This document shows positions 9,800-47,994 of a stretch of 57,650 nt of DNA, piece by piece; the stretch's first letter is position 1, and each line of letters starts with the position of its first letter. The DNA comes from Spirochaetota bacterium (GTDB taxonomy: Bacteria; Spirochaetota; Spirochaetia; SPDA01; B32-G16). The notes under the pieces are model-generated. The model saw nothing but the letters and a program-made list of their open reading frames with translations, made no database searches and was not told the DNA's origin. The stretch is from NCBI GenBank assembly GCA_003645645.1, contig QNBH01000002.1, positions 1 through 57,650 of the forward strand, read 5' to 3'. Position numbers and translations under genes: made by a program.

Positions 9800-10027
9800 T
9801 TTATCCCCCTCTGGTCCTTAAAAAAAATACCATTAGCCGCCCTTACGGTAAACCCGTAATATATACTATGGCTGATAATACTAATTAAAATATATGATCA
9901 TTTTTATAATGTAACATTGATCTGCATCAAGTTTCAAGGGGAAACTCCATAACGGATATACTTTTCGATAAAACTGTCAAAGATTGACACAAGCTCAACA
10001 ATAAAATAACCTGTAAGTTGAAATATC

Positions 10028-10103
10028 TATCACGAAAATAGACCGCAATGACCGAATGGCTATTTTCATAGTATCGTTTGCCGCGCAACGGCATGAACAA
10101 CTA
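10028..10103 (+). repeat. 76-bp dispersed repeat, copy 1
   Basis: 63/76 identical to the reverse complement of 20472-20547. Confidence 0.9.
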
Positions 10104-10111
10104 TTAAAAAT

Positions 10112-11512
10112 ATGAATAGTCAGGTAAACAACAGCCTGGTATACATGGAGGGTATAAAAGTCCAGTTTGGCAACGTAGTCGCCTTAAACGGAGTTAATTT
10201 CCGTGTGGGGGCAGGTGAGGTTGTGGGACTACTCGGGGATAACGGTGCCGGGAAATCTACCCTCATAAAAGCTCTTATCGGACTTTACCGGATAAACGGC
10301 GGCAGCATATATTTTGATGGTCAAAAGGTCAACTTCTCTTCCCCCCGGGAGGCAAGAGTTGCCGGAATCGAAACAGCCTACCAGGATCTTGCCCTTATCG
10401 ACAGGTTAAGCATATCAAGGAATTTTTTTCTCGGAAGGGAGCTGGTAAAAAAAGCGGGTCCCTTCCGTCTTTTAGATAAAAAGAGGATGGATCAAATCAC
10501 CGCGGAATCTCTTAAAAGGATGGGGTTTGAAACCTTCAGAAGAATCGGAGATACTGTGAGTTTTCTCTCCGGAGGAGAGCGGCAGGCTCTGGCAATCGGA
10601 AGGGCTAATCACTTCTGTGCAAAACTTCTCATTCTCGATGAGCCGACGGCGGCACTCTCTGAGAACGATACCGACAGGCTTCTGCGCCTTGTTAGAGATA
10701 TAAAAAAGAAGGGAATCTCTGTAATCTTTATTACCCATAAGGCGCATGAGGTTTTCGAGGTAGCAGACAGATTCGTTATCTTAAGCCATGGCGAGAACTT
10801 TACCGAGCTCCTCAGGGATGATGTGGATCTAAAAGAGCTGGGAAAACTTCTAATATCATCCAGGGTAAAAGCTGTCAGGGAGATGGCATCCGCAGTAGCC
10901 CATCAAATAAGAAATCCCCTCGGTATACTTAAAGTATCGGCCCAGATGTTAAGGGACGATTTTCAGGTAAGGGTGAATGAGGATAATTACAAACGAATAC
11001 TTAATACAATGATCAACAAAATAGATACCCTCAATTTAATAGTTTATAACTTCCTGGAGTTCGGCCATCCGCGCCCGGCTAAGAGAAAGAATTGCTCTGT
11101 TCAAAGAATGATAGAATCGGCACTGGCAGCCCTTCCCTTAAGCAAATACCCGGAGGTAGAGGTAGAACTGGTAATCGATGAAAACATGGATGAGTATCCC
11201 ATGGATGAAAATCTTATGGAGCAGGTTATCTCCAATATCTTGATGAACGCATTACAGGCTTCCTCCGGAGGAGGTAAGGTAGAACTCAGATCAAAAATGG
11301 AGGATGGCAGGCTCAATATTGAGATAAGAGATAATGGTTGTGGTATTGACACAGATACAAAGAAGTTGATTTTCAACCCCTTCTTTACAACCCGTACTTC
11401 GGGAACCGGTCTTGGTCTTTCCATTGTTCACCGGATTATAGAGCAGCATAATGGCTCCATAGAGGTTGATTCCCTACCGGGGAAAGGGACTACATTTAAA
11501 ATAAAAATATGA
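10112..11512 (+). CDS. Fusion of a sugar ABC-transporter ATPase and a histidine kinase (HisKA-HATPase)
   Basis: Walker A GDNGAGKST, signature LSGGERQ, Walker B LLILDEP and H-loop ITH; then H-box AHQIRNPL, N-box NILMNALQA, DNGCGI, FNPFFTT and GTGLGL. Confidence 0.9.
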   Translation: MNSQVNNSLVYMEGIKVQFGNVVALNGVNFRVGAGEVVGLLGDNGAGKSTLIKALIGLYRINGGSIYFDGQKVNFSSPREARVAGIETAYQDLALIDRLSISRNFFLGRELVKKAGPFRLLDKKRMDQITAESLKRMGFETFRRIGDTVSFLSGGERQALAIGRANHFCAKLLILDEPTAALSENDTDRLLRLVRDIKKKGISVIFITHKAHEVFEVADRFVILSHGENFTELLRDDVDLKELGKLLISSRVKAVREMASAVAHQIRNPLGILKVSAQMLRDDFQVRVNEDNYKRILNTMINKIDTLNLIVYNFLEFGHPRPAKRKNCSVQRMIESALAALPLSKYPEVEVELVIDENMDEYPMDENLMEQVISNILMNALQASSGGGKVELRSKMEDGRLNIEIRDNGCGIDTDTKKLIFNPFFTTRTSGTGLGLSIVHRIIEQHNGSIEVDSLPGKGTTFKIKI

Positions 11513-12873
11513 GGAACCGGAAAATGAAAAGAATATTGGTTGCAGATGATGAAGAAGACATGTGTATGATTCTGAAGATGCTTCTGGAAAACGACGGTTA
11601 TGAAGTGATCACTGCAACTACAGGTAAAGATGTACTGCAATACATCACCGACGGAGGTAAACCAGATCTCATAATAACGGATTTAAAGATGCCCGATATA
11701 CAGGGGACGGAAATACTTAACTTTCTTAACGAAACAGGAAGAGATATTCCCTTGGTTCTCATAACGGCTTACGGAACTATTGAAGTTGCGGTGGAGGCCA
11801 TGAAGAACGGGGCTGTAGATTTTATTACCAAACCCTTTAACAAGGATGTTATAAGGCACATAATACGCAGGATATTCCGTATCGATTCCATGGAAAGGGA
11901 GAACGAGTTCTCCAAGGAGGCCATTCAGGAACGCGAAATAGTCTACATAAGCCCTGCCATGCATGAATTGATGGATACCGTGAAAAAGGTAGCCTGTGTG
12001 AAGACTCCCGTGTTGATTGCAGGCGAGAGCGGTTCCGGCAAAGAGCTAGTGGCAAGAGCTCTCCATTACTACGGGGGCACTACTGGAAGTGATGGGGTTG
12101 ATAGGCCGCTGGTAAGCATAAATTGCCCTACTGTTCCGGAATCCCTGTTTGAAAGTGAGTTGTTTGGTTATCAAAGAGGCGCTTTTACGGGGGCATTGCG
12201 AGATTATCAGGGCAAAATCAGAATGGCCGAAGGCGGCACACTTTTTCTTGATGAAATAGGAGACTTACCCCTTTCCATACAACCAAAGCTGTTGCGTTTC
12301 CTGGAAGAAAAAACCTTCGAACCCTTGGGAAGTAACGTGGAAATAAGAGTGAATACCAGGGTAGTGTGTTCTACAAACAGGGATTTAAGGGCGATGGTCA
12401 AGGAGGGGAAGTTCAGGGAGGATCTCTACTACCGTATAAATGCAATTACCCTTGAGGTTCCACCCCTGAGGGAGAGAAGAGAGGATATTTTGCCCCTTGC
12501 AGAATATTTTATAGAAAAGAATGCTCAGGAAACAGGAAAAGGGAGAAAAACCCTCTCCCATCCGGTTGAAAAACTGTTTAAAAGATACAACTGGCCGGGT
12601 AATGTACGAGAATTGAAAAATGTAATCGAACGCGCCGTGGTCCTCTCCACCGATAAGGAGATAAAGCTTACCCATATACCCTCAGAATTACGCTCCAATT
12701 TCAGTCTCGATAAAGAGGAGTTCTCCTGCAATCGGTTTGACAGCATCGAGAGGCAGCTTCTTCTTGAATCTCTTGAGAAGAACAACTGGAACATCACTGC
12801 CGTTGCGAGAGAGCTCGGAACGACAAGAAGCACAATTCGTTACAGGATAAAAAAATTCGGTATAAAAAAATAG
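11509..12873 (+). CDS. NtrC-family sigma54-dependent response regulator
   Basis: Receiver domain (VADDE, TDLKMP, TAY, KPF), AAA+ motifs GESGSGKE, ESELFG..GAFTGA and WPGNVREL, and a Fis-type HTH. Confidence 0.95.
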   Translation: MRNRKMKRILVADDEEDMCMILKMLLENDGYEVITATTGKDVLQYITDGGKPDLIITDLKMPDIQGTEILNFLNETGRDIPLVLITAYGTIEVAVEAMKNGAVDFITKPFNKDVIRHIIRRIFRIDSMERENEFSKEAIQEREIVYISPAMHELMDTVKKVACVKTPVLIAGESGSGKELVARALHYYGGTTGSDGVDRPLVSINCPTVPESLFESELFGYQRGAFTGALRDYQGKIRMAEGGTLFLDEIGDLPLSIQPKLLRFLEEKTFEPLGSNVEIRVNTRVVCSTNRDLRAMVKEGKFREDLYYRINAITLEVPPLRERREDILPLAEYFIEKNAQETGKGRKTLSHPVEKLFKRYNWPGNVRELKNVIERAVVLSTDKEIKLTHIPSELRSNFSLDKEEFSCNRFDSIERQLLLESLEKNNWNITAVARELGTTRSTIRYRIKKFGIKK

Positions 12874-13089
12874 TTCAAAGGCAATAATCGGAGTGGCTGT
12901 TTTTGTCCGGTAATCGGCTTATATCGTCCGGTTTTATCGAGATTAGAGAAAAATTGTTAGATAAAGTAGAGAGACGGGCAAATCCGAAAAATCAGCGGGA
13001 ACTGAACAAAATAATTAATTTGTATGTCAAGAATTATAAATCATCGTATTCATTCGGTTCCGTAGCCGTAAGACATGAAAGAGATGAGT

Positions 13090-13105
13090 TGGCATAAAAA
13101 TTGCT
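13090..13105 (+). promoter_or_regulatory. sigma54 (-24/-12) promoter of the ABC transporter operon
   Basis: TGGCATAAAAATTGCT with correct GG-N10-GC spacing, between the activator gene and the SBP gene. Confidence 0.85.
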
Positions 13106-13150
13106 TACTGCTAATTAAAACAACTACTTCAAGATTTAAGGAGGAAATCG

Positions 13151-14146
13151 ATGAAAAAGGGTTTAAAGGTTGTTATTTCGTTTTTTCTCATGCTTTTCAT
13201 TGCGGTGTCAGTATTTTCTGCAGGAAAGCAGGAGGCTGTCAAGCCAACAGGAGAGAGGTATAAGTTTTTTGTGGTCTCGCACGGAGGTCCTGCAGATCCA
13301 TTCTGGGGTGTAGTGATGAAGGGGGCGAAGGAGGCTGGAGAGATGTTCAATTGCGATGTTCAGTATCTGGGGCCGGAAAAATTTTCGATCCAGAAACTGG
13401 TGGACATGGTTGAAACAGCAGTTGCAAGCGATCCCGATGGGCTGGTGGTAACTATAACCGATGCGAAGGCGCTGGATCAGCCGCTGAAAGATGCTATCAA
13501 CAAGAAAGGGATTCCGGTTGTAGCCATCAATGTTCCCGATTATCGCCCCTTTGAGGAGCGTATTCCCTATCTTGCTTATGTTGGAGCGGACGACTACAAA
13601 GTAGGTATCGAAGGAGCACGAAGAATGCTTAAGGCCTTTGCCCCCGGTAAACCTGAAAGAGGGGTGGTTTCAATTCATGAGGTAGGTCATGCGGGGCTTG
13701 AGGCTCGTGCCAGAGGCATAACAGAAGTTTTTACAGAAAAGGGGATACCCGTGGAAAAACTTGCCACCTCTCCAAATGCCTCGGAGACCTATCAGGCTGT
13801 GGATGCATATCTCACAAAAAATCCGGATACGGATGCTATTTTCACACTGGGGCCGCTGGACACACATCCTGTATTGAGACTGCGTGAGGAGAAAGGGTTA
13901 CTGGATAAAACCAAACAGGGCGCAGTCGATCTTTCTCCAACAATCATCAAAGCCATAAGAGAGGAGAAACTCCTTTTCACGGTGGAGCAGCAGCAGTATT
14001 TGCAGGGCTATCTTCCTATCGGCTTGCTTGTACTCTATAATAAGTTCGGGCTCATTCCCCATGATGATATCTTAACAGGTCCTGCCATTGTGGATAAAGA
14101 CAATGTGGAAATAGTTGCAGAGATGGTTGAGAAAAATTATAGATAA
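13151..14146 (+). CDS. Sugar (possibly inositol) ABC transporter substrate-binding protein, CUT2 family
   Basis: Signal peptide; VSHGGPADPFW...QQQYLQGY periplasmic-binding type I motifs. Confidence 0.9.
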   Translation: MKKGLKVVISFFLMLFIAVSVFSAGKQEAVKPTGERYKFFVVSHGGPADPFWGVVMKGAKEAGEMFNCDVQYLGPEKFSIQKLVDMVETAVASDPDGLVVTITDAKALDQPLKDAINKKGIPVVAINVPDYRPFEERIPYLAYVGADDYKVGIEGARRMLKAFAPGKPERGVVSIHEVGHAGLEARARGITEVFTEKGIPVEKLATSPNASETYQAVDAYLTKNPDTDAIFTLGPLDTHPVLRLREEKGLLDKTKQGAVDLSPTIIKAIREEKLLFTVEQQQYLQGYLPIGLLVLYNKFGLIPHDDILTGPAIVDKDNVEIVAEMVEKNYR

Positions 14147-14164
14147 AGGCACAATAAAAAACCC

Positions 14165-14328
14165 CGGCAGTGCCAGGAAGATTGTGCTTCTTTAAGATAA
14201 GGGCTCTTTGGGGAGCTTCGCTTACTTCATGCTTCGGGGTTCACAAGACTGCCATACAGCATGAGGTGCAGGGAGCTCCCCGAGTAAAATTCTTCTATAT
14301 AGGAAGCACAAAATCCGTGGCACTACCG
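14165..14328 (+). other. Long imperfect inverted repeat (~165-nt hairpin) between the SBP and permease genes
   Basis: Nested complementary blocks: CGGCAGTGCCA/TGGCACTACCG, TTGTGCTTC/GAAGCACAA, GGGGAGCT/AGCTCCCC and CTTCATGCT/AGCATGAGG. Confidence 0.8.
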
Positions 14329-14361
14329 ATAAAATAAATATCACACAGGGTTAAAGGGAAA

Positions 14362-15333
14362 ATGAAAGGCGGAATACGGCTTTTTTATAGCAGACTTTTA
14401 AGGGTTAAAGAGATAGGGTCACTTTCGGGTCTGCTGATAATAATAATTATTTTTTCTCTTCTTTCCGGAAAATTCCTCACAAGAGAGAACTTTATAGGAA
14501 TTTTCACCATCACCTCTGAGCTCGGGATAATAGCCATAGGGGTGTGCTTCCTCATGATTGCAGGAGAGTTTGACCTCTCGGTAGGTTCTGTGTTTGCTGT
14601 CGCTCCAATGATCGGTGCCCTGCTTGGAAAAATCGGTGTACCGATGGTGGGAGCATTTTTCGTCAGTCTTTTTGCCTCTGCTGTAATCGGTTATTTTAAC
14701 GGACTCATTGTAATAAAAACAGGGATTCCCTCCTTTATAGTGACCCTTGGAGCGATGATGTTTTACCGGGGCGTCTTGCTTGCTGTATCCGGGGGGTTCA
14801 CTATTACTTTTATGGGCGAAGATACCGCCTTTCTCGATGCCCTTGGAGGAAAGATCTTTATGGGCATGAGGGCATCGGGAATATGGTTTATAGCTGCAAC
14901 CATTATTTTTTCCATAGTCCTGAATAACACCAAATACGGTAATCACGTTTTTGCAGTGGGAGGTAATCCGGGGACGGCAAAAGCTCTTGGCATCAATGTG
15001 AACAGGGTAAAGTTAATCAACTTTGTGCTCTGTTCGGTTATGGCCGGACTGGCAGGTTTTACAATGTTTGGTCGTTTTCACAGCATCGATCCTACTGCAG
15101 GCAGTCTCCATGAGCTCGAAGCAATCGCCTCGGCGGTAATCGGCGGGGCTCTGCTTACAGGAGGTTACGGCAGCATAGTGGGCGCTTTTATTGGGGCGTT
15201 TCTAATAGGTGTTATGAGAAGCGGATTGATCCTTGCCGGTGCGCCATCCTACTGGTACCAGGGATTTATCGGGGTGGTTCTGGTTATCTCTGTTATAATC
15301 AATACAAAAATAAGAAAGGCGGTGGCAGGATGA
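14362..15333 (+). CDS. Sugar ABC transporter permease (RbsC-like)
   Basis: GEFDLSVGS, IPSFIVTLG, AVGGN and ELEAIASAVIGG motifs. Confidence 0.93.
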   Translation: MKGGIRLFYSRLLRVKEIGSLSGLLIIIIIFSLLSGKFLTRENFIGIFTITSELGIIAIGVCFLMIAGEFDLSVGSVFAVAPMIGALLGKIGVPMVGAFFVSLFASAVIGYFNGLIVIKTGIPSFIVTLGAMMFYRGVLLAVSGGFTITFMGEDTAFLDALGGKIFMGMRASGIWFIAATIIFSIVLNNTKYGNHVFAVGGNPGTAKALGINVNRVKLINFVLCSVMAGLAGFTMFGRFHSIDPTAGSLHELEAIASAVIGGALLTGGYGSIVGAFIGAFLIGVMRSGLILAGAPSYWYQGFIGVVLVISVIINTKIRKAVAG

Positions 15334-16118
15334 CGGGTGCAGCGAGTATTACTCAGGAAGAAAGAGATAAAAAAATAAGGGAATACCTGGTATATATGGA
15401 AAACGTAACCGTCCGTTTCGGTAAGGTGGTTGCTCTCAGGGATGTCAACTTTTCCGTTAAAAAGAACGAAGTGGTGGGTCTTCTTGGGGATAATGGTGCT
15501 GGTAAATCCACTCTTATCAAGGCGTTGAATGGATATCACCAGGTCGATGGGGGGGAGATTTACTTTAACGGAGAGAGAACAAATTTCCAATCCCCAAGGG
15601 ATGCCAGGGATGTTGGGATAGAGACCGCATACCAGGATCTGGCTCTGGTTAATCTCATGAGCATATCCAGAAACTTTTTTCTGGGAAGGGAGCTTGTGAT
15701 GGGGAACCGATTCTTTAAGTTTCTGGATAAACGGAAGATGGATGAAGTGGCGGCACACTCCCTGGCAGAGGTTGGTTTGCGAAATATCCGGGAAATGCAT
15801 GAAACTGTCAACTTCCTCTCCGGCGGAGAACGGCAGGCTATAGCGATCGGGAGGGCCAGCTACTTTGGCGCTAAACTCCTTATTCTGGATGAGCCCACCG
15901 CCGCGCTGTCCGTAGCAGAAACGGAATGGGTCTTGCGGCTGGTTAGCGAAGCAAAAGAGAAGGGTCTTTCGGTAATTATTATAACTCACAACGCCTATGA
16001 AGCCTATGAAGTATCCGACCGTTTTGTGGTTCTTCAGCACGGAAAGAACTATGCGGATTTAAAACGGGAGGAGACAAACGCCAAAGAACTTATCGAAGTG
16101 ATCGCCGGCAGAAAATAG
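15330..16118 (+). CDS. Sugar ABC transporter ATP-binding protein (single NBD)
   Basis: GDNGAGKST, LSGGERQ, ILDEP and ITH motifs. Confidence 0.95.
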   Translation: MTGAASITQEERDKKIREYLVYMENVTVRFGKVVALRDVNFSVKKNEVVGLLGDNGAGKSTLIKALNGYHQVDGGEIYFNGERTNFQSPRDARDVGIETAYQDLALVNLMSISRNFFLGRELVMGNRFFKFLDKRKMDEVAAHSLAEVGLRNIREMHETVNFLSGGERQAIAIGRASYFGAKLLILDEPTAALSVAETEWVLRLVSEAKEKGLSVIIITHNAYEAYEVSDRFVVLQHGKNYADLKREETNAKELIEVIAGRK

Positions 16119-16373
16119 AATAACACAAAAGATAATCCTTCACATTTTTAATAATCATCCTCAGATTAAGTAATTCGGTTTTTATAAAAGAGCGAACTAC
16201 ACAGTGATAAGTTATAAGAAATTTAAAAAAAATCTCGAAAAGTTGTAGTTTTATGCTTGACAAATCAAAAAATATTGTATAATAAAAATAAATTTTATAT
16301 TATAAAACTTTAATAACTTAAACAAAATTTGGGAGATTCAATATTGCTTTCTCCCGAAAAAGGAGGATTGATT

Positions 16374-16667
16374 ATGAAAAAACTGATTTTTTTGTTGGCT
16401 CTGGTGTCTCTCCTTTCTTCTTATATTATTGCAGAGGGGCAATCGGAGGGAGTTTCGGAAGAGGGTAAGGTTTATATTTTTAAGTATGCCAATGCCCAGT
16501 CTCCAAACCATCCGCGCAGCAAGTCGATGGTACTGTTTAAAGAACAGTTGGAGAAAGCCAGCAATGGCCGCATCAAGGTAGAGCTTTTTTTCTCCGGTGT
16601 GCTGGGGAAAGAGGCGGAAGTTCTTTATAGAATATTTTGCTTATCAGCCTGTTCGTTTTTCTTTTGA
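16374..16667 (+). pseudogene. Truncated TRAP substrate-binding protein (DctP N-terminus)
   Basis: AGGAGG RBS, signal peptide and HPRSKSMVLFKEQLEKASNGRIKVELFFSGVLGKEAEVL, followed by an abrupt end. Confidence 0.8.
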
Positions 16668-17905
16668 TGGGTATACCCATAGCTTATTCTCTGGGGTTAT
16701 CCGCATTTTGTTACTTTTCCATTATTCATCCCGAACTATTACCCGTTTTACCTCAACGTCTTTTTGCAGGGATGAACTCATATGCAATGATAGCCCTTCC
16801 TCTCTTTATTACCATGGGTTTGTTAATGAACAAAGGGGGAATTACATCGCGGCTGATAGACTTCAGTATGCTCTTTGTTAGAAGATTTCGCGGAGGTCTG
16901 GGCGCGGTTAATGTTCTTGCCTCTATGATCTTCGGGGGGATTTCTGGCTCATCGGTTTCCGATACTGCCTCAATAGGCGCTGTACTTATTCCCGAGATGA
17001 AAGATCGCGGCTATACAGCGGAGTTTGCAAGCGGGATTACCGTAGCTTCCTCTACCATGGGGATGATTCTCCCTCCCAGTGTTCCCATGGTGATCTATGC
17101 ACTTGTAGCCGAAGAATCTGTGGGCAAGCTCTTTCTCGGTAGTGCTATTCCTGGCATCATGATCGGTTTAATCATGCTTGAGATCATAATGGCAATATCT
17201 TACTGGCAAAACTATCCCAGGGAAGAGGTGAGTCTCAGTACAAAAGAGCAATTCGTACGGGTTCGAAAATCTATTCTTGCTATAATTATGCCCGTATTTG
17301 TCGTAGGTTCTGTGGTATTCGGCATAGCAACGGCCACTGAATCGGCCGGTGTTGGGATACTTTATGCGCTCATTATAGGGCTTTTTGTAACTCGCGGCCT
17401 GAAGCTACAAAATATACCGCCAGTTCTTAAATCGGCGATTATCACAAGTGCAACTGTGATGATAATCATTGCTCTATCACAAATGTACGTCCGGATACTG
17501 GCAATTGAGCGGATTCCTGAAGCAGTCGCATTGTTTGTTACATCGCTAAACTTACCCGGTGTTTTAATTTTTCTCTGTATTGATATTATTATATTGCTTA
17601 CAGGAACCTTTGTAGATGTAAGCCCAGCAATACTTCTGCTCACTCCTGTGTTTTTATCTGCGGCTCAAGCCCTTGGTATATCATCCGTACAGTTTGGTGC
17701 AATTCTAATTACAGGGCTTGCAATCGGCCTGGTAACACCTTCGGTAGGGATGTGTCTCAATGCAGGCTCGGCGATTTCGAGATTAAGTATCGGCAGGATA
17801 TTCAAGGCCTCAATACCCTTTTTACTTGCCAATATAATTACCCTTGTTTTAATAACACTTCTGCCCCCGCTGAGCTTATGGTTACCCGGATTGTTGATGA
17901 AATAA
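16637..17905 (+). CDS. dctM: TRAP transporter large permease (DctM); native start probably lost
   Basis: GIPIAYSLG, ALPLFI, FGGISGSS, PPSVPM and GLVTP motifs; no RBS, and no dctQ upstream. Confidence 0.85.
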   Translation: MLISLFVFLLMGIPIAYSLGLSAFCYFSIIHPELLPVLPQRLFAGMNSYAMIALPLFITMGLLMNKGGITSRLIDFSMLFVRRFRGGLGAVNVLASMIFGGISGSSVSDTASIGAVLIPEMKDRGYTAEFASGITVASSTMGMILPPSVPMVIYALVAEESVGKLFLGSAIPGIMIGLIMLEIIMAISYWQNYPREEVSLSTKEQFVRVRKSILAIIMPVFVVGSVVFGIATATESAGVGILYALIIGLFVTRGLKLQNIPPVLKSAIITSATVMIIIALSQMYVRILAIERIPEAVALFVTSLNLPGVLIFLCIDIIILLTGTFVDVSPAILLLTPVFLSAAQALGISSVQFGAILITGLAIGLVTPSVGMCLNAGSAISRLSIGRIFKASIPFLLANIITLVLITLLPPLSLWLPGLLMK

Positions 17906-24189: not shown

Positions 24190-25011
24190 TTGTTGAATAT
24201 GGAAAAAGAGAGTTATCGGTTTCCCCTTTCGGTACAACTCGTTCTCCCGGATGATTACCGGGAGAACGATGTATTTAAAAGACAGTTGGAAATCTTAAAG
24301 AGTTTGGGATTCAGCGGTGTAGAGTTAAACATTGAAAATCCAGGGAATGTGGTTCTTGCGGATATAATCCGGTTTCTTAAAAGTTACAATCTACGTTTCT
24401 CCATGTTTGCATCGGGGCTTACGGCGAAAACCTTAAATCTTTCACTTTCTGCCGCGGATGAGGGAGAACGAAGGAGGGCGGTTGAGGAATGCAGGGCCGT
24501 AGTGGATTTTCTTGCAAACACTAAAATACCTGTTATTATGGGTTATATAAAGGGTCCCGGAGTACCATACAGAGACCGGGCGGTGGAGCAGTTTAAAAAA
24601 TCCCTCAAAGAGCTCGCTCCCTATGCAAAGATGAAGGAGGTAACCCTCATCGTAGAGGCAACTAACAGGTATGAAACCCCTGTGGCAAACTCTCTTAAAG
24701 AGGCGGTTGAGATTGTCCGTGAAGCAGGAAACCGTTTTACCAGAGTATTACCGGATACCTTCCACATGAACATAGAAGAGGCGGATATGTTTTCTGCTTT
24801 AAAGGAATGCAGGGATTACTACAACCACCTGCATCTCTCCGATAACAACAGGTTTTTTCCGGGGTTGGGGGCTATAGATTTTAGAAGGATAGTTGATTTT
24901 ATCAAGGAGATGGATTACAGAGGCTCTCTGGCCATAGAGGGAAACATAAAAAACTCCTTTGAAGAAGATATAAAGGAAAGCATGGAGTATCTTGCACCCC
25001 TACTAAAATAG
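24190..25011 (+). CDS. iolO: Xylose-isomerase-like TIM-barrel epimerase, 5-keto-L-gluconate epimerase-like
   Basis: EATNRYET, DTFHMNIEE and HLSDNNR.FPG.G motifs; synteny. Confidence 0.72.
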   Translation: MLNMEKESYRFPLSVQLVLPDDYRENDVFKRQLEILKSLGFSGVELNIENPGNVVLADIIRFLKSYNLRFSMFASGLTAKTLNLSLSAADEGERRRAVEECRAVVDFLANTKIPVIMGYIKGPGVPYRDRAVEQFKKSLKELAPYAKMKEVTLIVEATNRYETPVANSLKEAVEIVREAGNRFTRVLPDTFHMNIEEADMFSALKECRDYYNHLHLSDNNRFFPGLGAIDFRRIVDFIKEMDYRGSLAIEGNIKNSFEEDIKESMEYLAPLLK

Positions 25012-25168
25012 TTTAACATAACCCGGGGAGTAACATCGAAGAGAAAAGACGCCACATCTGTAGGGGCAAAAAAGCTTCTGAAAGGTCTCCGCGATTCTTT
25101 CTGAGAACCAGAACGGTAAAAATTCTCCCCTCACCGGGGATGAATTAAATTTCAGGAGGAGGAATACA

Positions 25169-26188
25169 ATGAAGTCAAAAATAAATGTAGGAATAATTGG
25201 GGCCGGCCGTATTGGTCAGCTCCATGCAGAGAATCTTACAAACCGGATAAGGGGGGTAAGAGTTGCTGCAATTACAGATATAAACATAGAAGCTGCCCGA
25301 AAATGCGCTTCTCGACTCGAAATTCCTCAAGCAGACAGTGATTACAGACGAGTCATGGATAACCCCGATGTGGATGCCGTTATTATATGTTCCAGTACAG
25401 ACACTCATGCCGGGTTTATCGAAGAAGCCGCAGAAACCGGTAAACATATTTTCTGCGAAAAGCCCATAGCGCTCGACCTCCCGGAAATAGACAGAGCTCT
25501 CACGGCAGTGAAGAAAGCCGGAGTGAAGCTCCAGGTAGGTTTTAACCGCCGTTTCGATCCAAATTTTAGCAGAATTCGAGAACTTATTGCAGAGGGCAGG
25601 ATAGGAGAACCTCACATACTGCGGATTACAAGCAGAGATCCGGCTCCTCCACCCATTGAATATGTAAAAGTCTCAGGAGGGCTCTTCCTCGATATGACCA
25701 TACACGATTTCGATATGGCTCGTTTCTTAATAGGTAGTGAAGTGGATGAGGTTTCCGCAATCGGAGGGGTGATGATAGATCAGGAGATAGGAAAGGCGGG
25801 AGATATAGATACCGCCATAACAAATCTCATGTTTGAAAACGGAGTTATGGGTACCATTGACAACAGCAGGAAAGCGGTTTACGGTTATGACCAGAGAGTG
25901 GAGGTCTTCGGTTCTGCAGGTATGCTCACTGCAGAAAATGAAACTCCCAACAGGGTGGCACTGAGTACCGGAGAGGCGGTAATCCAGGATCTACCCCTAT
26001 ATTTCTTTCTGGAAAGGTACCAGGAATCCTACATAAGGGAGATGCAGGAGTTTATTAACTGTATCGTCGACGATAGAGATCCGCCCGTAAGCGGGGAAGA
26101 TGGGAGGATGCCTGTTGTGATTGGAAAGGCAGCCATGCTATCTTTCAAGGAGAGGCGTCCTGTTAAACTCGCAGAGATAAGCGGTTAG
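25169..26188 (+). CDS. iolG: myo-inositol 2-dehydrogenase
   Basis: GAGRIG, CEKP, GFNRRFD, SRDP, DMTIHDFD and YGYDQR motifs. Confidence 0.93.
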   Translation: MKSKINVGIIGAGRIGQLHAENLTNRIRGVRVAAITDINIEAARKCASRLEIPQADSDYRRVMDNPDVDAVIICSSTDTHAGFIEEAAETGKHIFCEKPIALDLPEIDRALTAVKKAGVKLQVGFNRRFDPNFSRIRELIAEGRIGEPHILRITSRDPAPPPIEYVKVSGGLFLDMTIHDFDMARFLIGSEVDEVSAIGGVMIDQEIGKAGDIDTAITNLMFENGVMGTIDNSRKAVYGYDQRVEVFGSAGMLTAENETPNRVALSTGEAVIQDLPLYFFLERYQESYIREMQEFINCIVDDRDPPVSGEDGRMPVVIGKAAMLSFKERRPVKLAEISG

Positions 26189-42752: not shown

Positions 42753-44318
42753 TCAAGGAAATCCCTCCACCGAACCGTCAAACCCGAACCGCTCTTTAAG
42801 GGCTTTTCGAAAAGCCGGGGGGTTTATTTTTAAAAGCCTGGCAGCCTGCTCCCTGTTTCCTCCCGATATCTTAAGAGCTTTCTCGTAATAATCCCTCTCT
42901 ATCTGGTATAGTAAAGCCTTAAGATCGACTCCACTTTGTGGAAGCTTGATCTCGATACCGGGAAGGGGCGGCTCCTTGTTAAAATATGACAGGATGGCAG
43001 GGGGAAGTATTTCCGGTCCGATAAGATCGGATTGACTAACGGCACAGACGGAGATAACGGTATTTTCAAGTTGTCTCACATTCCCCGGCCACGGATAGGA
43101 TAGGATATAATGCATTGCCTCTTCGGAGAACCTCTTGTTCTCTCCGTGTTTCTCGTTCCACTCTTTTAAAAATGTTGCCGACAGAAGAGGTATATCTTCT
43201 TGACGTTCCCTGAGCGGGGGAACTTCCAGGGTAACCTGGTTAAGTCTCTCGTATAAGTCTCTTCTGAACGTACCCTCATCGATCATCTGTTCAAGGTTTT
43301 TATTTGTTGCAGCTATGACCCGTATATCAACAGTTAGACCTGTATCTGCCCCCAGGGGAAGAAGGGTTTTCTCTTCAAGCACTCTAAGGAGTTTTGGCTG
43401 GACCTCCGGAGGCAAATCACCGACCTCATCGAGAAATACTATTCCCCGATCGGCTGCACGGAACTGACCCAACCTGCTCCTGCTTGCACCGGTAAAGGCT
43501 CCCTTTTCATGACCGAAGAGCTCGCTTTCTGCAAGCGTCGATGTTATGGAAGCGCAATTAACGGGAAGAAACGGTTTTTCCGCTCTATCACTGTGTTGAT
43601 GGATGAATTTTGCAACTAACTCTTTACCGGTTCCGGTCTCCCCCCTAATTAGTACAGTAATATCATAGGAGGCTATGCGTAAGGCTCTTTGAAGAGTTTC
43701 TCTGATGGGATCGGACTCTCCAATGATTTCTGCTCTTGTTGTGGTAGTAATCCATCGATCCCCGGAACTTTTATTACCCTGAACGCGGATATCATCTCTT
43801 CTTAATTTAATTTCCGGGAAAATCCCCTTATCAAGGTTAACCTCTCTTACCTTGTATGCTCCGCCTGTAAAGCGGGGTGGAATCCCCTGGAGTAATCTGG
43901 CGGGGATGTATCCGGACCTGGCCAGGAGAAACCACACCGTTTGCATCTGAGGAGTTCCCGAATCAAGAAGAATAGACAATTCCACTTTAAGATGTCTGAG
44001 CTGTCCGAGAATCTTATCGACAGCATCCTTTATTTTTGTATAAACTTCCTCGTAATCCACCGGAGAGAAAATATCCAAGTTTATAAAAGCGAATTTTGTT
44101 TTATTGGATTCTGTACCCTTATCCGTTCGTTCGCCCAGTACCTCCTCAACCATACGTGCCCGTTCAAAATACTCATAGCCTGAGCAGAAAAGATAGACCC
44201 TGTGGAAATACCTTTCATTTAAAAGGCAGAGAAGCGGCCCCCATTCCTCGCTCTCTTCGGGATAGGGGTCGCGGTTGCCTACAAAACTAAAGAGAACATC
44301 TATCTTATTAACCGCCAT
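42753..44318 (-). CDS. sigma54-dependent activator with an N-terminal CARF-like (RtcR-type) domain
   Basis: Rossmann-like N-terminus LFSFVGNRDPY...SPVDYEEVY...LLDSGTPQMQTVW; AAA+ motifs GETGTGKE, ESELFGHEKGAFTGA, FLDEVG and WPGNVRQL; C-terminal HTH. No receiver domain. Confidence 0.85.
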   Translation of the reverse strand: MAVNKIDVLFSFVGNRDPYPEESEEWGPLLCLLNERYFHRVYLFCSGYEYFERARMVEEVLGERTDKGTESNKTKFAFINLDIFSPVDYEEVYTKIKDAVDKILGQLRHLKVELSILLDSGTPQMQTVWFLLARSGYIPARLLQGIPPRFTGGAYKVREVNLDKGIFPEIKLRRDDIRVQGNKSSGDRWITTTTRAEIIGESDPIRETLQRALRIASYDITVLIRGETGTGKELVAKFIHQHSDRAEKPFLPVNCASITSTLAESELFGHEKGAFTGASRSRLGQFRAADRGIVFLDEVGDLPPEVQPKLLRVLEEKTLLPLGADTGLTVDIRVIAATNKNLEQMIDEGTFRRDLYERLNQVTLEVPPLRERQEDIPLLSATFLKEWNEKHGENKRFSEEAMHYILSYPWPGNVRQLENTVISVCAVSQSDLIGPEILPPAILSYFNKEPPLPGIEIKLPQSGVDLKALLYQIERDYYEKALKISGGNREQAARLLKINPPAFRKALKERFGFDGSVEGFP

Positions 44319-44322
44319 TTGC

Positions 44323-44424
44323 CTGCTCCCATATTTTAACCTTTATTGCACAAAGAAGGCTTGCCGCAAATGACGGCATGCCTCTTCAAAGTTAACTGCT
44401 CCCCTATTATAACCTTTATTGCAC
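44323..44424. repeat. 29-bp direct repeat pair flanking a 44-bp hairpin-containing spacer
   Basis: CTGCTCCC(A/C)TATT(T/A)TAACCTTTATTGCAC at 44323-44351 and 44396-44424; 27/29 identical. Confidence 0.92.
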
Positions 44425-44524
44425 GCTAGCAAGTATAATTGTTGTTTTTAAAAAATTGTAGATTCAAGATTACAAAAGTTAGCCTTCGGTAACTCTGGTT
44501 TCACATAAAGGCTAAGAAAGGCAG

Positions 44525-44565
44525 AAATTATGCTCAAATTTCTCCAAATTATGCAAATTTTCTCC
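44525..44565. repeat. Tandem ~21-bp repeat just upstream of the sigma54 promoter
   Basis: AAATTATGCTCAAATTTCTCC / AAATTATGCAAATTTTCTCC. Confidence 0.8.
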
Positions 44566-44576
44566 CGAAATTGAGA

Positions 44577-44592
44577 TGGCACAAAAATTGCT
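44577..44592 (+). promoter_or_regulatory. sigma54 (-24/-12) promoter oriented toward the cas operon
   Basis: TGGCACAAAAATTGCT matches the consensus TGGCAC-N5-TTGC(T/A). Confidence 0.85.
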
Positions 44593-44618
44593 ATACAATT
44601 AAAAGAGGAGTTGGGGTG

Positions 44619-44690
44619 ATGTATTCACTTCCTACTGAGGGTTTAATTAATTCCTTGGAAAAGATCGTTTACATAAATGCAGAGAGTTAA
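44619..44690 (+). CDS. Putative 23-aa small ORF (MYSLPTEGLINSLEKIVYINAES)
   Basis: GAGGAG RBS at 44605-44610, just after the predicted sigma54 start site. Confidence 0.35.
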   Translation: MYSLPTEGLINSLEKIVYINAES

Positions 44691-44784
44691 GATAACCAAA
44701 AGGTTCGTAAGACCTTTAAGGCGTTACACCCCGATTAGCTCTGTCAGGATTCTGTGGAATTTTTATATTTTTTGGAATATTTAG

Positions 44785-44813
44785 TTGCATTATCCGGAAT
44801 GGTGATTTATAAT
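44785..44813 (+). promoter_or_regulatory. sigma70 promoter upstream of cas6, overlapped by an inverted repeat
   Basis: TTGCAT-N17-TATAAT; TTATCCGGAA (44790-44799) and TTCCGGATAA (44837-44846). Confidence 0.65.
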
Positions 44814-44871
44814 AAAAAAGAGTCTTCATTGCGCAGTTCCGGATAAAATAACTACGGATAAGGATGCTGCT

Positions 44872-45786
44872 TTGAAACTTAACCATCAAACATTCGAGTG
44901 CATTTTAAAAAGTGAGCGCTCTATTTATTTCGACACCTTTCCCACCTTTATCTTCAGAAGCGTTATAGGAAAGGAATTGAGAAAAATAAGTTGCCTTTTT
45001 AAGAACAGGAATTGCAGTGAATGTTCTTTAAAAAACACCTGTGCATACTCTTTCATTTTCGAGACGCCGGTGGATAAGGAGAACAGGCTTCTCCATGGCA
45101 GAAACAGGGCTCCCCATCCCTTTACTCTCTACTCGCCTGTAAGTGCGAATGAAACGACAGACACCATAGCCCTGAATATCACGATGTTTGGTAAAAGTAT
45201 CGAGTACTTTCCCTATCTCTATTTCTCGTTAAAGCAGGCGGGAGAGAAGGGGATTTTCAGAGACAGAGTGCGGTTATCGGTGGATTCACTCTTATGTGGA
45301 GATAGCTCGATTCTCTTAGAAGAAGAGAAAATCGATACTTCTGTTCCTCCCCGGGTTTGGCGTATTGAAGGCAGTGAAGATAGGCAGGTAAAAAAGATCA
45401 ATATAAAGTTACTTTCTCCTCTGAGGCTTAAATACAGCGGGAAATATGGCACGGATTTTACCTGTTTCGATTTTCTAAATGCAGTAGAGCGAAGGGCAAG
45501 ACTCTTATGCGGGTTTTTCGGAGAAGACCAGCAGGATAGAAATAAGCCTGTTTTTTCAACCGGCAACAAGCAAATTACGGAGCGAGACCTTATATGGCAC
45601 GACTACAGATACTACTCTTCCCGCCAGAAATCGAGACTTAAAATGGGAGGTACAGTGGGTTCCTTTTCTCTGGAAGGAGAGTTTTCATCCGGGGAGCTTT
45701 CCCTGTTGAAAGGTGCGGAGCTTTTTCAGGTGGGAAAAAACTCTGTTTTCGGCTTCGGAAAGATATCGATTTACGAAGAGGATTAA
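44872..45786 (+). CDS. cas6: CRISPR pre-crRNA endoribonuclease Cas6
   Basis: C..C..C..C..C cluster with PHPF, SPLRL, MGGTVG and the C-terminal G-loop VGKNSVFGFG. Confidence 0.92.
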   Translation: MKLNHQTFECILKSERSIYFDTFPTFIFRSVIGKELRKISCLFKNRNCSECSLKNTCAYSFIFETPVDKENRLLHGRNRAPHPFTLYSPVSANETTDTIALNITMFGKSIEYFPYLYFSLKQAGEKGIFRDRVRLSVDSLLCGDSSILLEEEKIDTSVPPRVWRIEGSEDRQVKKINIKLLSPLRLKYSGKYGTDFTCFDFLNAVERRARLLCGFFGEDQQDRNKPVFSTGNKQITERDLIWHDYRYYSSRQKSRLKMGGTVGSFSLEGEFSSGELSLLKGAELFQVGKNSVFGFGKISIYEED

Positions 45787-45789
45787 GCT

Positions 45790-47994
45790 GTGCGGATTGC
45801 CTTAACTTCCCTTGGTCAATCATGGGCTATTATTCCGGAATTGACAGGTTTTTTATATCCTCGTGGGTACGACTTCTTCAAGAATCATCCCGATGCCGGC
45901 AAAATCAACTCATCTCGTGAGTTTCTGGGGGCAGGCAAGCTGGATGAGCTCTGGGTATTGGCAACAGAAGAGAGAAACTCTTTAAAAGCAGTGGATAAAA
46001 TACGGATGTGGAGCGAGCTTGTTTATCTCGATATTCCCATAAGGGTATGGATAACTTCAGGATTGTCGGATCTTTTCTCTCCGGAGGATTGTGCGCATAT
46101 GCGCGATGCCGTGTTGAGGTTGTGTATGCTGTGCAGAAAACTGGTGGGTAGAAATACGGAGATAATTTTCTCCCTGGCCGGTGGGAGAAAAACAATGAGT
46201 GCAGATATTCAATATTCAGCCTCTTTTTTCGGCCCCGGAGTATTGATCCATGTTGCAGACAGAAATATTCCGCCTTATTTCAAAGACCCCGACCCTTCTT
46301 TGCTTTTAATTCCACCGGGTCGAGAACTTGCCTCCTCCTTCATGCCGCTTATTATAGGTAAATATCCCGAGAACAGTCTCTCCGCACAGATCGATAGCAA
46401 GGATTTCACACTTCCCGAGTACACTCCACACAAAAGGCAGTACCGAATCCCCCTTGATAAGAATCTGGCTCAAAAGGTGGATGGGATACTCAATTCGGCA
46501 TCAAACTTCCTGTTCTACCAGATTTTTGATAAGACCTATGCGCAGAAGGAAAGTTCAAACTATTCCAGGTTGTTCGTTCTCCCGCCTGCGAGGATAAAAG
46601 ATTTAAGAAATATCCGGCTGGGAATTGAGCCGGAAAGAACAAAGGAGGAGTTGGTTCTGGTTAAGAAGCTTCCCAAAGCCGATCTTCATTGCCATCTCGG
46701 AGGAGTACTCACGGTAGAGGAGATTGTAGAGATAGCCCGAATACATGAAAATGAAGTTGGATGCTGGGAGAGAAAACACGAAGGCTTTCACAGGAAGAGA
46801 GAGGAGTGGATGCAGATTGCTTCGAAGGGAGATCCCACTGCCGTTTCGGAAAAAATAGGAGGGGAGAGGATAAGAGAATTGAGGGTTATGTTTAAAGAGA
46901 TCCCCCAGCCTTTTACCGTATGCGGGTTTCTCCTTTGCTTTATAGAGAATCCCCATCTCCTTGAGCAGGCCTTGTATGGGCGATGGATGAACGAGTCCGA
47001 TTTTACCGGTATTGGGATGAATGAGTACGAACGTTTGGGCGACCTGCAGGGGTCTGCATTGCTTCAGACAGAACCTGTTATCAGGGCGGTGGTGAGAAAA
47101 ACCGTAGAAAAGTGCATAGAGGATAATGTTACATACCTGGAATTACGCTGTTCACCTCAGAATTATACAAGGGGCGGACTTAAAATAGAGAAGGTTTTCG
47201 GAATAATAGATGATGAGCTTAAGAAAGCTTCCCACCGGATAGAGAACGGTATAATCCTAATAACAAGCAGGCACAGAAAAATGGACGAAATCTTCTCTAC
47301 TATAGAGTTAATAGATCATCTAGTTGAAGAAAACAGGGCGGGAAGGATCCTTGGGGTGGATCTGGCGGGAGATGAAACCTCATTGGCGCCTGCAAACCTT
47401 AGAGAGCACTTTCTTAGATTTATGGACAGGTGTATGCATATAACAATTCACGCCGGAGAGAACCAGGTTGCCGGGAATATCTGGGAGGCGGTGTATCACC
47501 TGAGTGCGGAGAGAATCGGGCACGGTCTTACCCTTTCGTATAAACCCGAACTAATGAAAAAGTTTCTCGACAGAGGCATCGGTATCGAGATGTGTCCGTC
47601 GAGCAACAGACAGATTGTGGGGTATACAGACTTCTGCCAGGAAAAAGTCGATAAAGCTATTTCTTCCGGCATAAAAGCAGAAGCACAATCCTCATCAATT
47701 TCGGAGAAGAGGATTCCCCATACCTACCCCTTAAAGGAGTTTCTCGATTATGGATTGAAGGTTTCGGTTAACACAGACAACATGGGTATCTCCCGTACAA
47801 GCCTTTCGAAAGAGCTGCTTCAGGCAGCCCGATTAACTCCCAGGGGATTGTCCGTAATGGAGATACTCCAGCTTATTAAGAACGCCTATTCTTCTGCATT
47901 TACAGATCACGATACGAGGAAAAAGCTAATTCTCGATTCCGAGAGGAGAATAATCGAGCTATTTCAGAGTGAGGAGGTTTTACCAGGTGGATGA
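45790..47994 (+). CDS. cad1: CARF-domain adenosine deaminase effector (Cad1/CAAD-like)
   Basis: CARF motifs LTSLGQSW and SLAGGRKTMS; deaminase motifs LPKADLHCHLGG, YLELR, GVDLAGDE, TIHAGE, RIGHG, EMCPSSN and VNTDN. Confidence 0.9.
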   Translation: MRIALTSLGQSWAIIPELTGFLYPRGYDFFKNHPDAGKINSSREFLGAGKLDELWVLATEERNSLKAVDKIRMWSELVYLDIPIRVWITSGLSDLFSPEDCAHMRDAVLRLCMLCRKLVGRNTEIIFSLAGGRKTMSADIQYSASFFGPGVLIHVADRNIPPYFKDPDPSLLLIPPGRELASSFMPLIIGKYPENSLSAQIDSKDFTLPEYTPHKRQYRIPLDKNLAQKVDGILNSASNFLFYQIFDKTYAQKESSNYSRLFVLPPARIKDLRNIRLGIEPERTKEELVLVKKLPKADLHCHLGGVLTVEEIVEIARIHENEVGCWERKHEGFHRKREEWMQIASKGDPTAVSEKIGGERIRELRVMFKEIPQPFTVCGFLLCFIENPHLLEQALYGRWMNESDFTGIGMNEYERLGDLQGSALLQTEPVIRAVVRKTVEKCIEDNVTYLELRCSPQNYTRGGLKIEKVFGIIDDELKKASHRIENGIILITSRHRKMDEIFSTIELIDHLVEENRAGRILGVDLAGDETSLAPANLREHFLRFMDRCMHITIHAGENQVAGNIWEAVYHLSAERIGHGLTLSYKPELMKKFLDRGIGIEMCPSSNRQIVGYTDFCQEKVDKAISSGIKAEAQSSSISEKRIPHTYPLKEFLDYGLKVSVNTDNMGISRTSLSKELLQAARLTPRGLSVMEILQLIKNAYSSAFTDHDTRKKLILDSERRIIELFQSEEVLPGG

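Follow-up and report, generated by a model that had tools for sequence, protein, structure and literature searches.

We describe here a locus in a 57,650-nt window (the whole stretch of DNA that was analyzed) of contig QNBH01000002.1 from a Spirochaetota bacterium, in which the nucleotide-binding domain (NBD) of an ATP-binding cassette (ABC) transporter is fused in frame to a histidine kinase. The fusion locus occupies positions 10112-16118 of the window and is spanned by five open reading frames (ORFs), all on the plus strand, encoding the fusion, an NtrC-type regulator, a periplasmic substrate-binding protein (SBP), a CUT2 permease, and a plain transport ATPase. Probably, this locus uses the transporter itself as its receptor; with a probability of about 0.6 in our estimate, the kinase dimer occupies the position of the ATPase on the permease, and NBD closure driven by the SBP is turned into phosphorylation. 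Support for a docked kinase comes from the conserved architecture of the fusion, its intact catalytic motifs, the synteny and promoter of its loci, and two sets of lineages, one without the plain ATPase and one with complementary fusion pairs.

The fusion protein and its conserved locus

The locus consists of the following parts.

10112-11512, plus strand: NBD-histidine kinase fusion gene, 466 aa; Pfam domains ABC_tran at residues 25-180 (E 5.9e-28), HisKA at 255-318 (6e-12), and HATPase_c at 365-465 (7.6e-28)
10112..10819, plus strand: ABC nucleotide-binding domain of the CUT2 type with all catalytic motifs, residues 1-236 (AlphaFold2 [AF2] model)
10829..10960, plus strand: continuous helix from the end of the NBD into helix 1 of the dimerization and histidine phosphotransfer (DHp) domain, residues 240-283 (DSSP of AF2 model m8c310fd3e368)
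10901-10903, plus strand: codon of the acceptor His264, within the continuous helix
10979..11506, plus strand: DHp helix 2 (residues 290-318) and catalytic ATP-binding domain (326-465) (AF2 model)
11509-12873, plus strand: NtrC-type sigma54-dependent response regulator, 454 aa; Response_reg 9-119, Sigma54_activat 146-315, HTH_8 412-450
12895..12932, plus strand: candidate activator-binding sites, two 17-nt direct repeats with 21-nt spacing (repeat search)
13090..13105, plus strand: sigma54-type -24/-12 promoter, TGGCAT-N5-TTGCT, 46 nt 5' of the SBP start
13151-14146, plus strand: periplasmic SBP, 331 aa; Peripla_BP_4
14362-15333, plus strand: CUT2 permease, 323 aa; BPD_transp_2
14914-14997, plus strand: predicted NBD-docking loop of the permease, residues 185-212 (interface residues of the complex model), NTK..NHVFAVGGNPGTAKALGIN
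15330-16118, plus strand: plain single-NBD transport ATPase, 262 aa; ABC_tran

What a first-pass annotation had seen in the letters of this locus was borne out in every detail. It had taken the first ~250 aa of the fusion for a complete NBD with all catalytic motifs, and both the Pfam match and the motif conservation given below agree. The paralogy that it had claimed with the plain ATPase is likewise clear: fusion residues 2-243 align to the ATPase with 147 of 242 residues identical (61%, E 3e-106), the five peptides that it had quoted all lie in this alignment, and the Walker A, Q-loop, signature, and Walker B peptides are identical between the two proteins. Its description of an in-frame HisKA-HATPase part without transmembrane (TM) or other sensor domain also held, since no sensor domain other than the NBD was found in a Pfam scan of the fusion, and the highest 19-residue Kyte-Doolittle mean was 1.19, with no window above 1.6, compared to 78 such windows in the permease; judged from its sequence, the fusion is a soluble protein without a membrane segment. 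The overlap that it had noted between the fusion and regulator genes amounts to 4 nt (ATGA), an arrangement repeated between the permease stop and the plain ATPase start. The regulator itself combines a receiver, a Sigma54_activat domain (E 1.7e-63), GAFTGA in its translation, and HTH_8, as in the NtrC family, and is of the AtoC/NtrC type by NCBIfam.

The motifs GDNGAGKST, Q91, LSGGE, LLILDEPT, ALS, and THK are readable in the NBD of the window fusion, and those of a class I kinase (H264 in AHQIRNPL, N379, D407-G409-G411, F421/F424, and G433-G435) follow in the kinase part. The best NCBIfam matches of the NBD are YtfR, XylG, RbsA, AlsA, and GguA, each matching only in its N-terminal half and scoring below its full-length cut-off. 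Conservation was counted over an alignment of 66 fusions, from which P0026, with an LDEPF Walker B but itself intact, was omitted. Walker A K48, Q-loop Q91, and Walker B D176 and E177 were kept in 66/66 fusions, H-loop H209 in 65/66, and signature S153 in 64/66; both N104 and E110 of the CUT2-typical helix NFFLGRE were also kept in all 66. On the kinase side, the ATP-site residues N379, D407, G411, G433, and G435 were kept in 66/66 and the acceptor His264 in 59/66, and the linker LLISSR..AV.EMA..AHQIRNPL was conserved among the fusions. Such retention indicates that the fused NBD is kept as a putatively competent ATPase domain. One fusion (L227, 1452-2891 in G612:C17, also P0067) has the signature LPGG, with Ser replaced by Pro and the remaining motifs intact. 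Per-site entropy was also compared between fusion NBDs and plain ATPases, and the fusions showed higher variability in all regions (ratios 1.2 to 6.7); this comparison was set aside as confounded because the plain ATPase set is a far tighter clade, and it tells only that no single fusion NBD surface has collapsed.

The AF2 monomer model, built on the fusion alignment (pLDDT 83.6), places the NBD at residues 1-236 and joins its end to DHp helix 1, which carries His264, through one unbroken helix (residues 240-283), so in this model the NBD is rigidly coupled to the DHp domain. Foldseek matched one half of the fusion to importer NBDs and the other half to the ZraS cytoplasmic domain (9jfj), and found no Protein Data Bank (PDB) entry covering both halves (TMq at most 0.45).

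That the fusion is an assembly chimera, or a one-off deletion joining an ATPase gene to a kinase gene, is a virtually negligible possibility. Contigs of a second, independent study, X2 record 7 (9937-11085) and X3 record 16 (10272-11307), bridged the junction (~10829-10903) without indels. Among the best 120 database hits, 67 proteins of at least 440 aa, the window's own included, had the fusion architecture at 37-65% identity, which is therefore common to 66 other clusters; the rest comprised 2 fusion fragments and 51 plain NBDs of ~260 aa. Similarly, at 50% clustering, 12 of the best 150 matches among 1.84 billion representatives spanned the whole fusion and 5 more were junction-holding fragments. 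Fusions with a named source organism were all from Spirochaetota or an unclassified bacterium. A profile search of genome contigs with the full-length fusion alignment recovered at least four Spirochaetota loci, and junction-spanning matches occurred in 1/400 other genomes of an even phylum sample and in 2/60 nearest relatives, while 16/400 other genomes in a class sample, distributed over eight family codes, carried the fusion. In addition, the fusion is under constraint, with a ratio of nonsynonymous to synonymous substitution rates (dN/dS) of 0.10-0.12 in the comparison of the ATPase-less lineage described below (dS 0.56-1.2). The fusion as a real entity, as the first-pass annotation had proposed it, is thus established by the bridging contigs and the relatives. 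The metagenome junction search used a four-sequence junction alignment. Among the genomes, a junction-like match in G691 proved to be a non-fused 695-aa kinase and was discarded.

The genome of the window (G000) carries a second, paralogous module (L095 and L104; C108:3-956, minus strand, and C52:1-5101) consisting of a fusion, regulator, strict sigma54 box, SBP, permease, and single-NBD ATPase. Its SBP and permease are ~28-32% and 32% identical, respectively, to those of the window; its fusion gene is cut by two contig ends, and the full 469-aa protein is represented by P0026. Three fusion modules are present in genome G612.

Synteny was compiled over 21 distinct fusion loci. An NtrC-type regulator adjoined the fusion in 21/21 (split into two ORFs in G455), a CUT2 permease lay within the cluster in 20/21 (in G419, the exception, it lies 16 kb away on the same contig), and a plain single-NBD ATPase followed the permease in 18/21. 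The domain-architecture and synteny search that had been suggested as a check therefore returned a conserved family, linked to an NtrC-type regulator, a sigma54 promoter, and a CUT2 gene set. An alternative order on one strand was seen in L221 (G469:C39, 1-3994), namely permease, plain ATPase, fusion, and regulator, with the kinase after the transporter. In L225 (3053-4431; G455:C285), a locus without plain ATPase, the regulator is two ORFs of 239 and 186 aa, while it is whole in the related loci L108 and L223; the split could reflect genuine decay, a frameshift, or an error in sequencing.

A sigma54 box ahead of the SBP, permease, and ATPase genes had also been proposed, and it withstood analysis. 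The sequence at 13090-13105 is TGGCATAAAAATTGCT; the window contains two matches to the strict pattern TGGCAY-N5-TTGCW where 0.10 would be expected, and 0/100 shuffles reached two, this chance estimate covering the strict pattern in the window only. The genome encodes sigma54 (rpoN; Sigma54_DBD, 203.5 bits, G000:C1). Considering its box spacing, the rpoN gene in the genome, and the adjacent activator gene, 13090-13105 has the marks of a sigma54 promoter. A GG-N10-GC box was present upstream of the SBP gene in 17/17 readable loci having the plain ATPase; 10 of these boxes are strict and 7 deviate by one or two mismatches, with GG-N10-GC kept.

The transporters associated with the fusions belong to at least three types (among them a, b, and c), which share ~30% identity in SBP and permease. 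In the type-a loci L195, L224, L220, and L222, GGyTGATATCAGCC-like dyads occur in pairs with a spacing of 20-22 nt, at 200-260 nt upstream of the SBP start, and single copies are present in two further loci. The direct repeats of the window (12895-12932) lie at -256 and -235 from the SBP start and differ from the dyad consensus at 5 and 3 of 14 positions by manual count, below the threshold of the dyad scan; as they hold the same position as the dyads, we infer that they may be diverged activator sites. Type-c loci (L003, L229, L232, and L234) have a different dyad, GGGTGAAATCACCC, ~175 nt upstream of the SBP gene and at a fixed distance from the sigma54 box, suggesting that the DNA sites of the regulators diverged along with the transporter type. 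No intrinsic terminator was found on the plus strand between the regulator and SBP genes, and the whole scan was no richer in terminators than shuffled sequence.

Natural variants of the system and the docking model

Three loci, L108 (a metagenome contig), L223 (G577), and L225 (G455), consist of fusion, regulator, SBP, and permease genes, with no plain ATPase gene after the permease. The regulator and SBP genes are only tens of bases apart (31 in L108), and the SBP and permease are 65-66% and 72-74% identical, respectively, to those of the window. Downstream of the permease are paired GGyTGATATCAGCC-like dyads, a near-consensus sigma54 box, and then a second transporter of SBP', tandem ATPase, and permease', the dyads lying upstream of SBP' in all three loci. 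The inverted repeat following the L108 permease was at one point considered a terminator; this was rejected and the repeat re-read as the paired dyads of the activator, because other loci have this motif at an equal distance from their sigma54 boxes.

Neither G455 (97% complete) nor G577 (90% complete) yielded a type-a plain ATPase, and the best match of the window ATPase there was the fusion NBD itself (53% and 50%); in the control genomes G656 and G666, the same query found the plain ATPase beside the permease at 75% identity. G455 has just one other single-NBD ATPase (43% identity), which belongs to a transporter cluster of its own, beside a non-fused kinase. Nevertheless, purifying selection acts on the orphan permease and SBP, with dN/dS of 0.07-0.085 and 0.15-0.20, respectively, at dS 0.56-1.2, and the ATPase-less loci keep every fusion motif and every other component intact. 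A selected permease needs an NBD, and the NBD of the kinase is the only close candidate.

A second variant was found in one family-level lineage (L005/L233, 7096-14522; L194, 5494-9885; L235, 2-1240), in which fusions are divided into two clades with complementary defects. The alpha clade (8 clusters) keeps all NBD and kinase ATP-site motifs and has lost the acceptor His in 7/8. The beta clade (6 clusters) has a perfect H-box in 6/6, with a degenerate signature (LTKG in five, CTAG in one) and dead N, G1, F, and G2 boxes. In both G536 (= L005) and G419, alpha and beta share a contig, and beta was also found in G622. This is the pattern of an obligate heterodimer, in which alpha would provide the catalytic domain and beta the histidine, and in which one ATP site would be consensus and the other degenerate; the pattern implies that the fused NBDs pair with each other and argues against a mixed dimer with the plain ATPase.

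A complex prediction with the permease dimer had been proposed as a further check and was run here with fusion NBD residues 1-245 and three controls. The fusion NBD on the permease dimer reached an ipSAE of 0.62, against 0.02 for the best of the three controls; in calibration, this mark was reached by 58/80 solved complexes and 2/110 mismatched pairs. The three runs shared at least 95% of contacts, and the pLDDT of the partners was at least 79. In the modelled interface, the EAA-like coupling loop of the permease (residues 185-212, GNPGTAKALGIN) faces the Q-loop (88-99) and the NFFLGRE helix (103-110) of the NBD, which agrees with the geometry described for MalFGK2 in the text of PMC6906923. 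No PDB chain matched the permease by sequence at E 0.001 or better and no PDB entry covered both halves of the fusion, and hence no experimental template stood behind this interface. The model shows that a predicted docking surface is retained in the fusion NBD.

At the four interface positions where type-a and type-b ATPases differ, fusions of type-b loci carried the type-b residue in 4/8 cells, compared to 6/76 elsewhere (Fisher p 0.006), where the cells are not independent and may represent a single event because the two type-b-locus fusions are sisters. This is a hint that the interface of these fusions has adapted to the type-b transporter.

A proposed mechanism and its alternatives

The reading that we favor proceeds as follows. 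The protein would be a soluble histidine kinase whose sole input domain is a catalytically competent ABC-transporter NBD, derived from a CUT2 single-NBD ATPase. Dimerization of the kinase through its DHp helices would bring two fused NBDs together, and this pair would dock on the cytoplasmic coupling loops of the permease dimer instead of the plain ATPase dimer. Engagement of the permease by substrate-loaded SBP would make the fused NBDs close around ATP, as in ABC importers, and since the NBD runs unbroken into the acceptor-His helix, closure could re-set the DHp bundle and switch autophosphorylation. The phosphoryl group would then pass to the regulator encoded by the overlapping gene, which would bind the upstream dyads and activate the sigma54 promoter of the SBP, permease, and ATPase genes. 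Newly made plain ATPase would finally compete with the kinase for the permease and carry the bulk of transport. Docking, the state that turns the kinase on, and the competition step are the parts of this scheme that we infer.

A more far-reaching version, which we consider tentative at slightly less than even odds, treats the whole assembly as an SBP-dependent ABC importer turned transmembrane receptor, in which the kinase input is the motor domain of the importer and NBD closure is the signal. In the ATPase-less lineage, SBP, permease, and kinase would form a dedicated receptor kinase that switches on the second transporter, and in the alpha/beta lineage the receptor would be an obligate fusion heterodimer.

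Several observations weigh against a docked kinase. The alpha/beta fusion pair of G419 lies 16 kb from its transporter. The complex model indicates a retained surface rather than binding of the kinase, because the interface is a textbook one and the NBD is 61% identical to a real ATPase. G455 and G577 are draft metagenome-assembled genomes, and a plain ATPase could sit in unassembled DNA; the neighboring tandem ATPase could also serve both permeases; and the three ATPase-less loci represent one lineage (two share a genus code) and therefore one evolutionary event. Proteins with an ABC_tran-GAF-kinase order, described below, indicate that an NBD can accompany another sensor domain. Global co-variation of the fusion NBD with the type of its cognate ATPase or permease was negative: fusion NBDs are nearer to the type-a ATPase (61, 53, 51, 47, and 44%) than to their own type-b or type-c cognate (45, 42, and 37%), and at 42 discriminating positions the fusions of type-b loci match type a in 35/84 cells and type b in 10/84. 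Because every fusion NBD is nearer to type a than to its own type-b or type-c cognate, a single origin of the fusion from a type-a ATPase is probable, to judge from these identities, with later joining of the kinase-regulator pair to other CUT2 transporters; such re-combination weakens any argument from close co-evolution. Finally, the branches of the fusion NBDs are longer than those of the plain ATPases, which could mean relaxed constraint.

These points bear unequally on the alternatives. If the fused NBD dimer itself powered import, phosphorylation would be proportional to ATP turnover instead of SBP occupancy, and the kinase would be a true flux sensor; this differs from the favored scheme only in what is read. 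The hydrolysis residues are indeed kept, including the catalytic Glu (66/66) and the H-loop His (65/66), and the type-a permease of the ATPase-less loci has no candidate motor other than the fusion. However, regulation in these same loci is apparently aimed at a second complete transporter, which fits a dedicated receptor better, and we regard flux sensing as doubtful. It is more doubtful still, and in our judgment improbable, that the fusion acts as a soluble switch whose NBDs open and close with ATP/ADP or a cytoplasmic ligand without contacting the permease, so that the kinase tunes a costly importer to the energy state. The solubility of the fusion and the missing global co-variation would suit such a switch, as would the remote G419 pair and the ABC_tran-GAF-kinase proteins, and a free ATP-driven dimer would need the conserved catalytic motifs equally. 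Nonetheless, it leaves the strict linkage to SBP and permease (20/21 loci) without reason and does not explain the CUT2-specific docking helix in 66/66 fusions or the selected SBP and permease in a kinase operon lacking the plain ATPase; moreover, the kinase binds ATP already and needs no NBD to sense it.

The first-pass annotation had the kinase docking on the permease as one NBD, possibly as a heterodimer with the plain ATPase, so that a mixed pair would report the transport cycle. Docking on the permease is the part of this proposal that stands, as the best-supported reading, by virtue of the ATPase-less lineages, their selected orphan permease, and the coupling-loop model. For the mixed dimer, it can be said that the two NBDs, with their 61% identity and shared Walker A, Q-loop, signature, and Walker B peptides, make a mixed sandwich chemically plausible, and that both genes share a locus in 18/21 cases. 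Yet a kinase dimer brings two fused NBDs together, and a mixed arrangement would tie one such dimer to two transporters; signature decay in one fusion only, together with complementary kinase parts, is the hallmark of fusion-fusion NBD pairing in the alpha/beta lineage; and in the three loci that lack a plain ATPase next to the permease, all motifs are intact and selection persists. The heterodimer with the plain ATPase is therefore not supported, and we consider it very unlikely.

The kinase docked as a fusion dimer, if true, would provide a covalent read-out of the ABC conformational cycle, namely SBP-induced NBD closure, a step that has been studied for long but is hard to observe in cells. 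A soluble kinase normally views the outside through a membrane sensor domain; here that view would likely be the transporter itself, seen via its motor domain. The notion of the transporter as sensor would thereby extend from accessory contacts (Bce, Pst/PhoU, and MalK-MalT) to direct fusion, and the ATPase-less and complementary-pair lineages would serve as natural mutants of the sensing mechanism. Moreover, the compact set of SBP, permease, one kinase, one regulator, and one promoter could serve as a modular biosensor chassis, in which an SBP/permease swap changes the ligand.

Origin, related systems, and neighboring genes

In a tree of 128 NBDs, from which the row of the L005 beta fusion was left out, 53/55 plain ATPases, including that of the window, formed one tight clade (SH-aLRT 99), around which the fusion NBDs formed a longer-branched grade; this topology is compatible with the presumed single origin of the fusion. 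The tree also led to the rejection of gene conversion between the NBD genes of the window, as the fusion and the ATPase of the window are not sisters in it. The closest likeness of the fused NBD is to the single-NBD CUT2 ATPases (half-size relatives of RbsA, XylG, and YtfR), with whose clade it nests; unlike them, the fusion carries a kinase in place of a free C terminus and evolves faster.

The nearest non-fused relatives of the kinase core are membrane kinases of 600-740 aa, with an N-terminal region, HAMP, and PAS, located beside the same kind of regulator, sigma54 box, and CUT2 transporter. Many membrane kinases (L126, L132, L134, L138, L140, L141, L143, L152, and others) are paired with NtrC-type regulators, and most such loci have a strict sigma54 box before a tandem-ATPase CUT2 transporter. 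Four transporter-adjoining kinases were scanned (L126, L132, L143, and L148): HAMP and PAS were seen in L126 and L132, HAMP only in L148, and neither HAMP nor PAS in L143. These membrane kinases are the conventional counterpart of the fusion systems. Because the non-fused relatives carry a membrane sensor and control the same kind of operon, the NBD appears to have replaced the membrane or extracytoplasmic sensing module of the kinase.

By core type (HisKA plus HATPase_c), the kinase part resembles AtoS, ZraS, and NtrB (NCBIfam AtoS 2.3e-60 and ZraS 4.2e-45, both below cut-off); these kinases sense via periplasmic, PAS, or PII-binding modules, and none is known to have an ABC NBD as input. In the open-access literature searched, subscription journals and supplementary files being outside its scope, no description of an ABC-NBD/histidine-kinase fusion was found, and within that literature the fusion is apparently undescribed, as a variant of transporter-coupled two-component sensing.

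The nearest functional likeness is to BceAB-BceS of Bacillota. In Bce modules, as the cited texts describe them, the ABC transporter is the actual sensor, and a kinase without its own ligand-binding domain reads the state of the transporter and controls its expression (PMC4513084, PMC10314905). Those modules use a separate intramembrane kinase that contacts the permease of a MacB-like exporter-type pump, whereas here a soluble kinase is covalently one with the NBD. Unlike in Bce, the transporter here is an SBP-dependent CUT2 importer and the output runs via NtrC and sigma54. The Bce-module regulator is of the OmpR type. Bce modules are defined by an intramembrane-sensing kinase with two TM helices and by a BceB-type permease bearing a large extracellular domain. 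With a kinase lacking a TM segment and a BPD_transp_2 permease, the locus falls outside the Bce family, while it may work like a Bce module. In the PstSCAB-PhoU-PhoR system, an SBP-dependent ABC importer reports substrate to a histidine kinase via the adaptor PhoU and the PAS domain of PhoR, with no fusion.

The first-pass annotation had also held that co-sensing by transporter and kinase uses separate proteins, which is too narrow, since SLC5-domain/kinase fusions of the CrbS type have been described (PMC5715377). In the SLC5-STAC-histidine kinases CrbS and CbrA, as presented there, a transporter module and kinase likewise share one polypeptide, but the fused part is a membrane secondary-transporter domain, whereas here it is a soluble ABC motor domain with the membrane part as a separate protein. 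Members of this group have an N-terminal SLC5 symporter domain and a STAC domain ahead of the kinase; in the present fusion, only ABC_tran-type P-loop families precede HisKA (Pfam), which places it outside this group. A further likeness is to MalK-MalT of Escherichia coli, in which an importer NBD subunit conveys the state of the transporter to transcription: in the account of PMC6906923, MalK is proposed to sequester the activator MalT in one transporter state, and the ATPase activity of the maltose transporter depends on liganded SBP. MalK binds and inhibits a separate activator via its C-terminal regulatory domain and, unlike here, involves neither phosphorelay nor fusion.

Other combinations of ABC_tran with kinases appeared among atlas clusters of Actinomycetota (826-852 aa, with GAF), Chloroflexota (HisKA_3), and Bacillota (HisKA_2), and the order ABC_tran-GAF-HisKA-HATPase_c was confirmed by Pfam in P0213 and P0237 (845 and 974 aa). 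If the contexts of these other proteins also hold permeases, NBD-input kinases would be a recurrent, independently evolved form of sensing.

The substrate of the SBP is possibly an inositol-type cyclitol, a reasonable first guess from family matches and gene neighborhood. The best NCBIfam match of the SBP is a rhizopine SBP (223.6 bits, below the cut-off of 420), the orthologous loci L108 and G419 lie among IolG-, IolB-, IolD-, and IolE-like genes, and the window carries an IolE-like and an IolG-like gene at 24190-26185.

Between the fusion locus and a downstream TRAP-transporter DctM gene (16637-17905) there is only a 112-aa ORF (16329-16667), which has a signal-peptide-like start and zero Pfam matches and may be a truncated or frameshifted DctP binding-protein gene. 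The second strict sigma54 box of the window (44577-44592, TGGCACAAAAATTGCT) lies between a divergent RtcR-like sigma54 activator gene (42756-44318, minus strand) and a gene for a Cas6-domain protein (44872-45786), the latter followed by a gene for a 734-aa adenosine-deaminase-domain protein (45790-47994). The region 42756-47994 looks like an RtcR-controlled operon with CRISPR-associated-type parts instead of the usual rtcBA.

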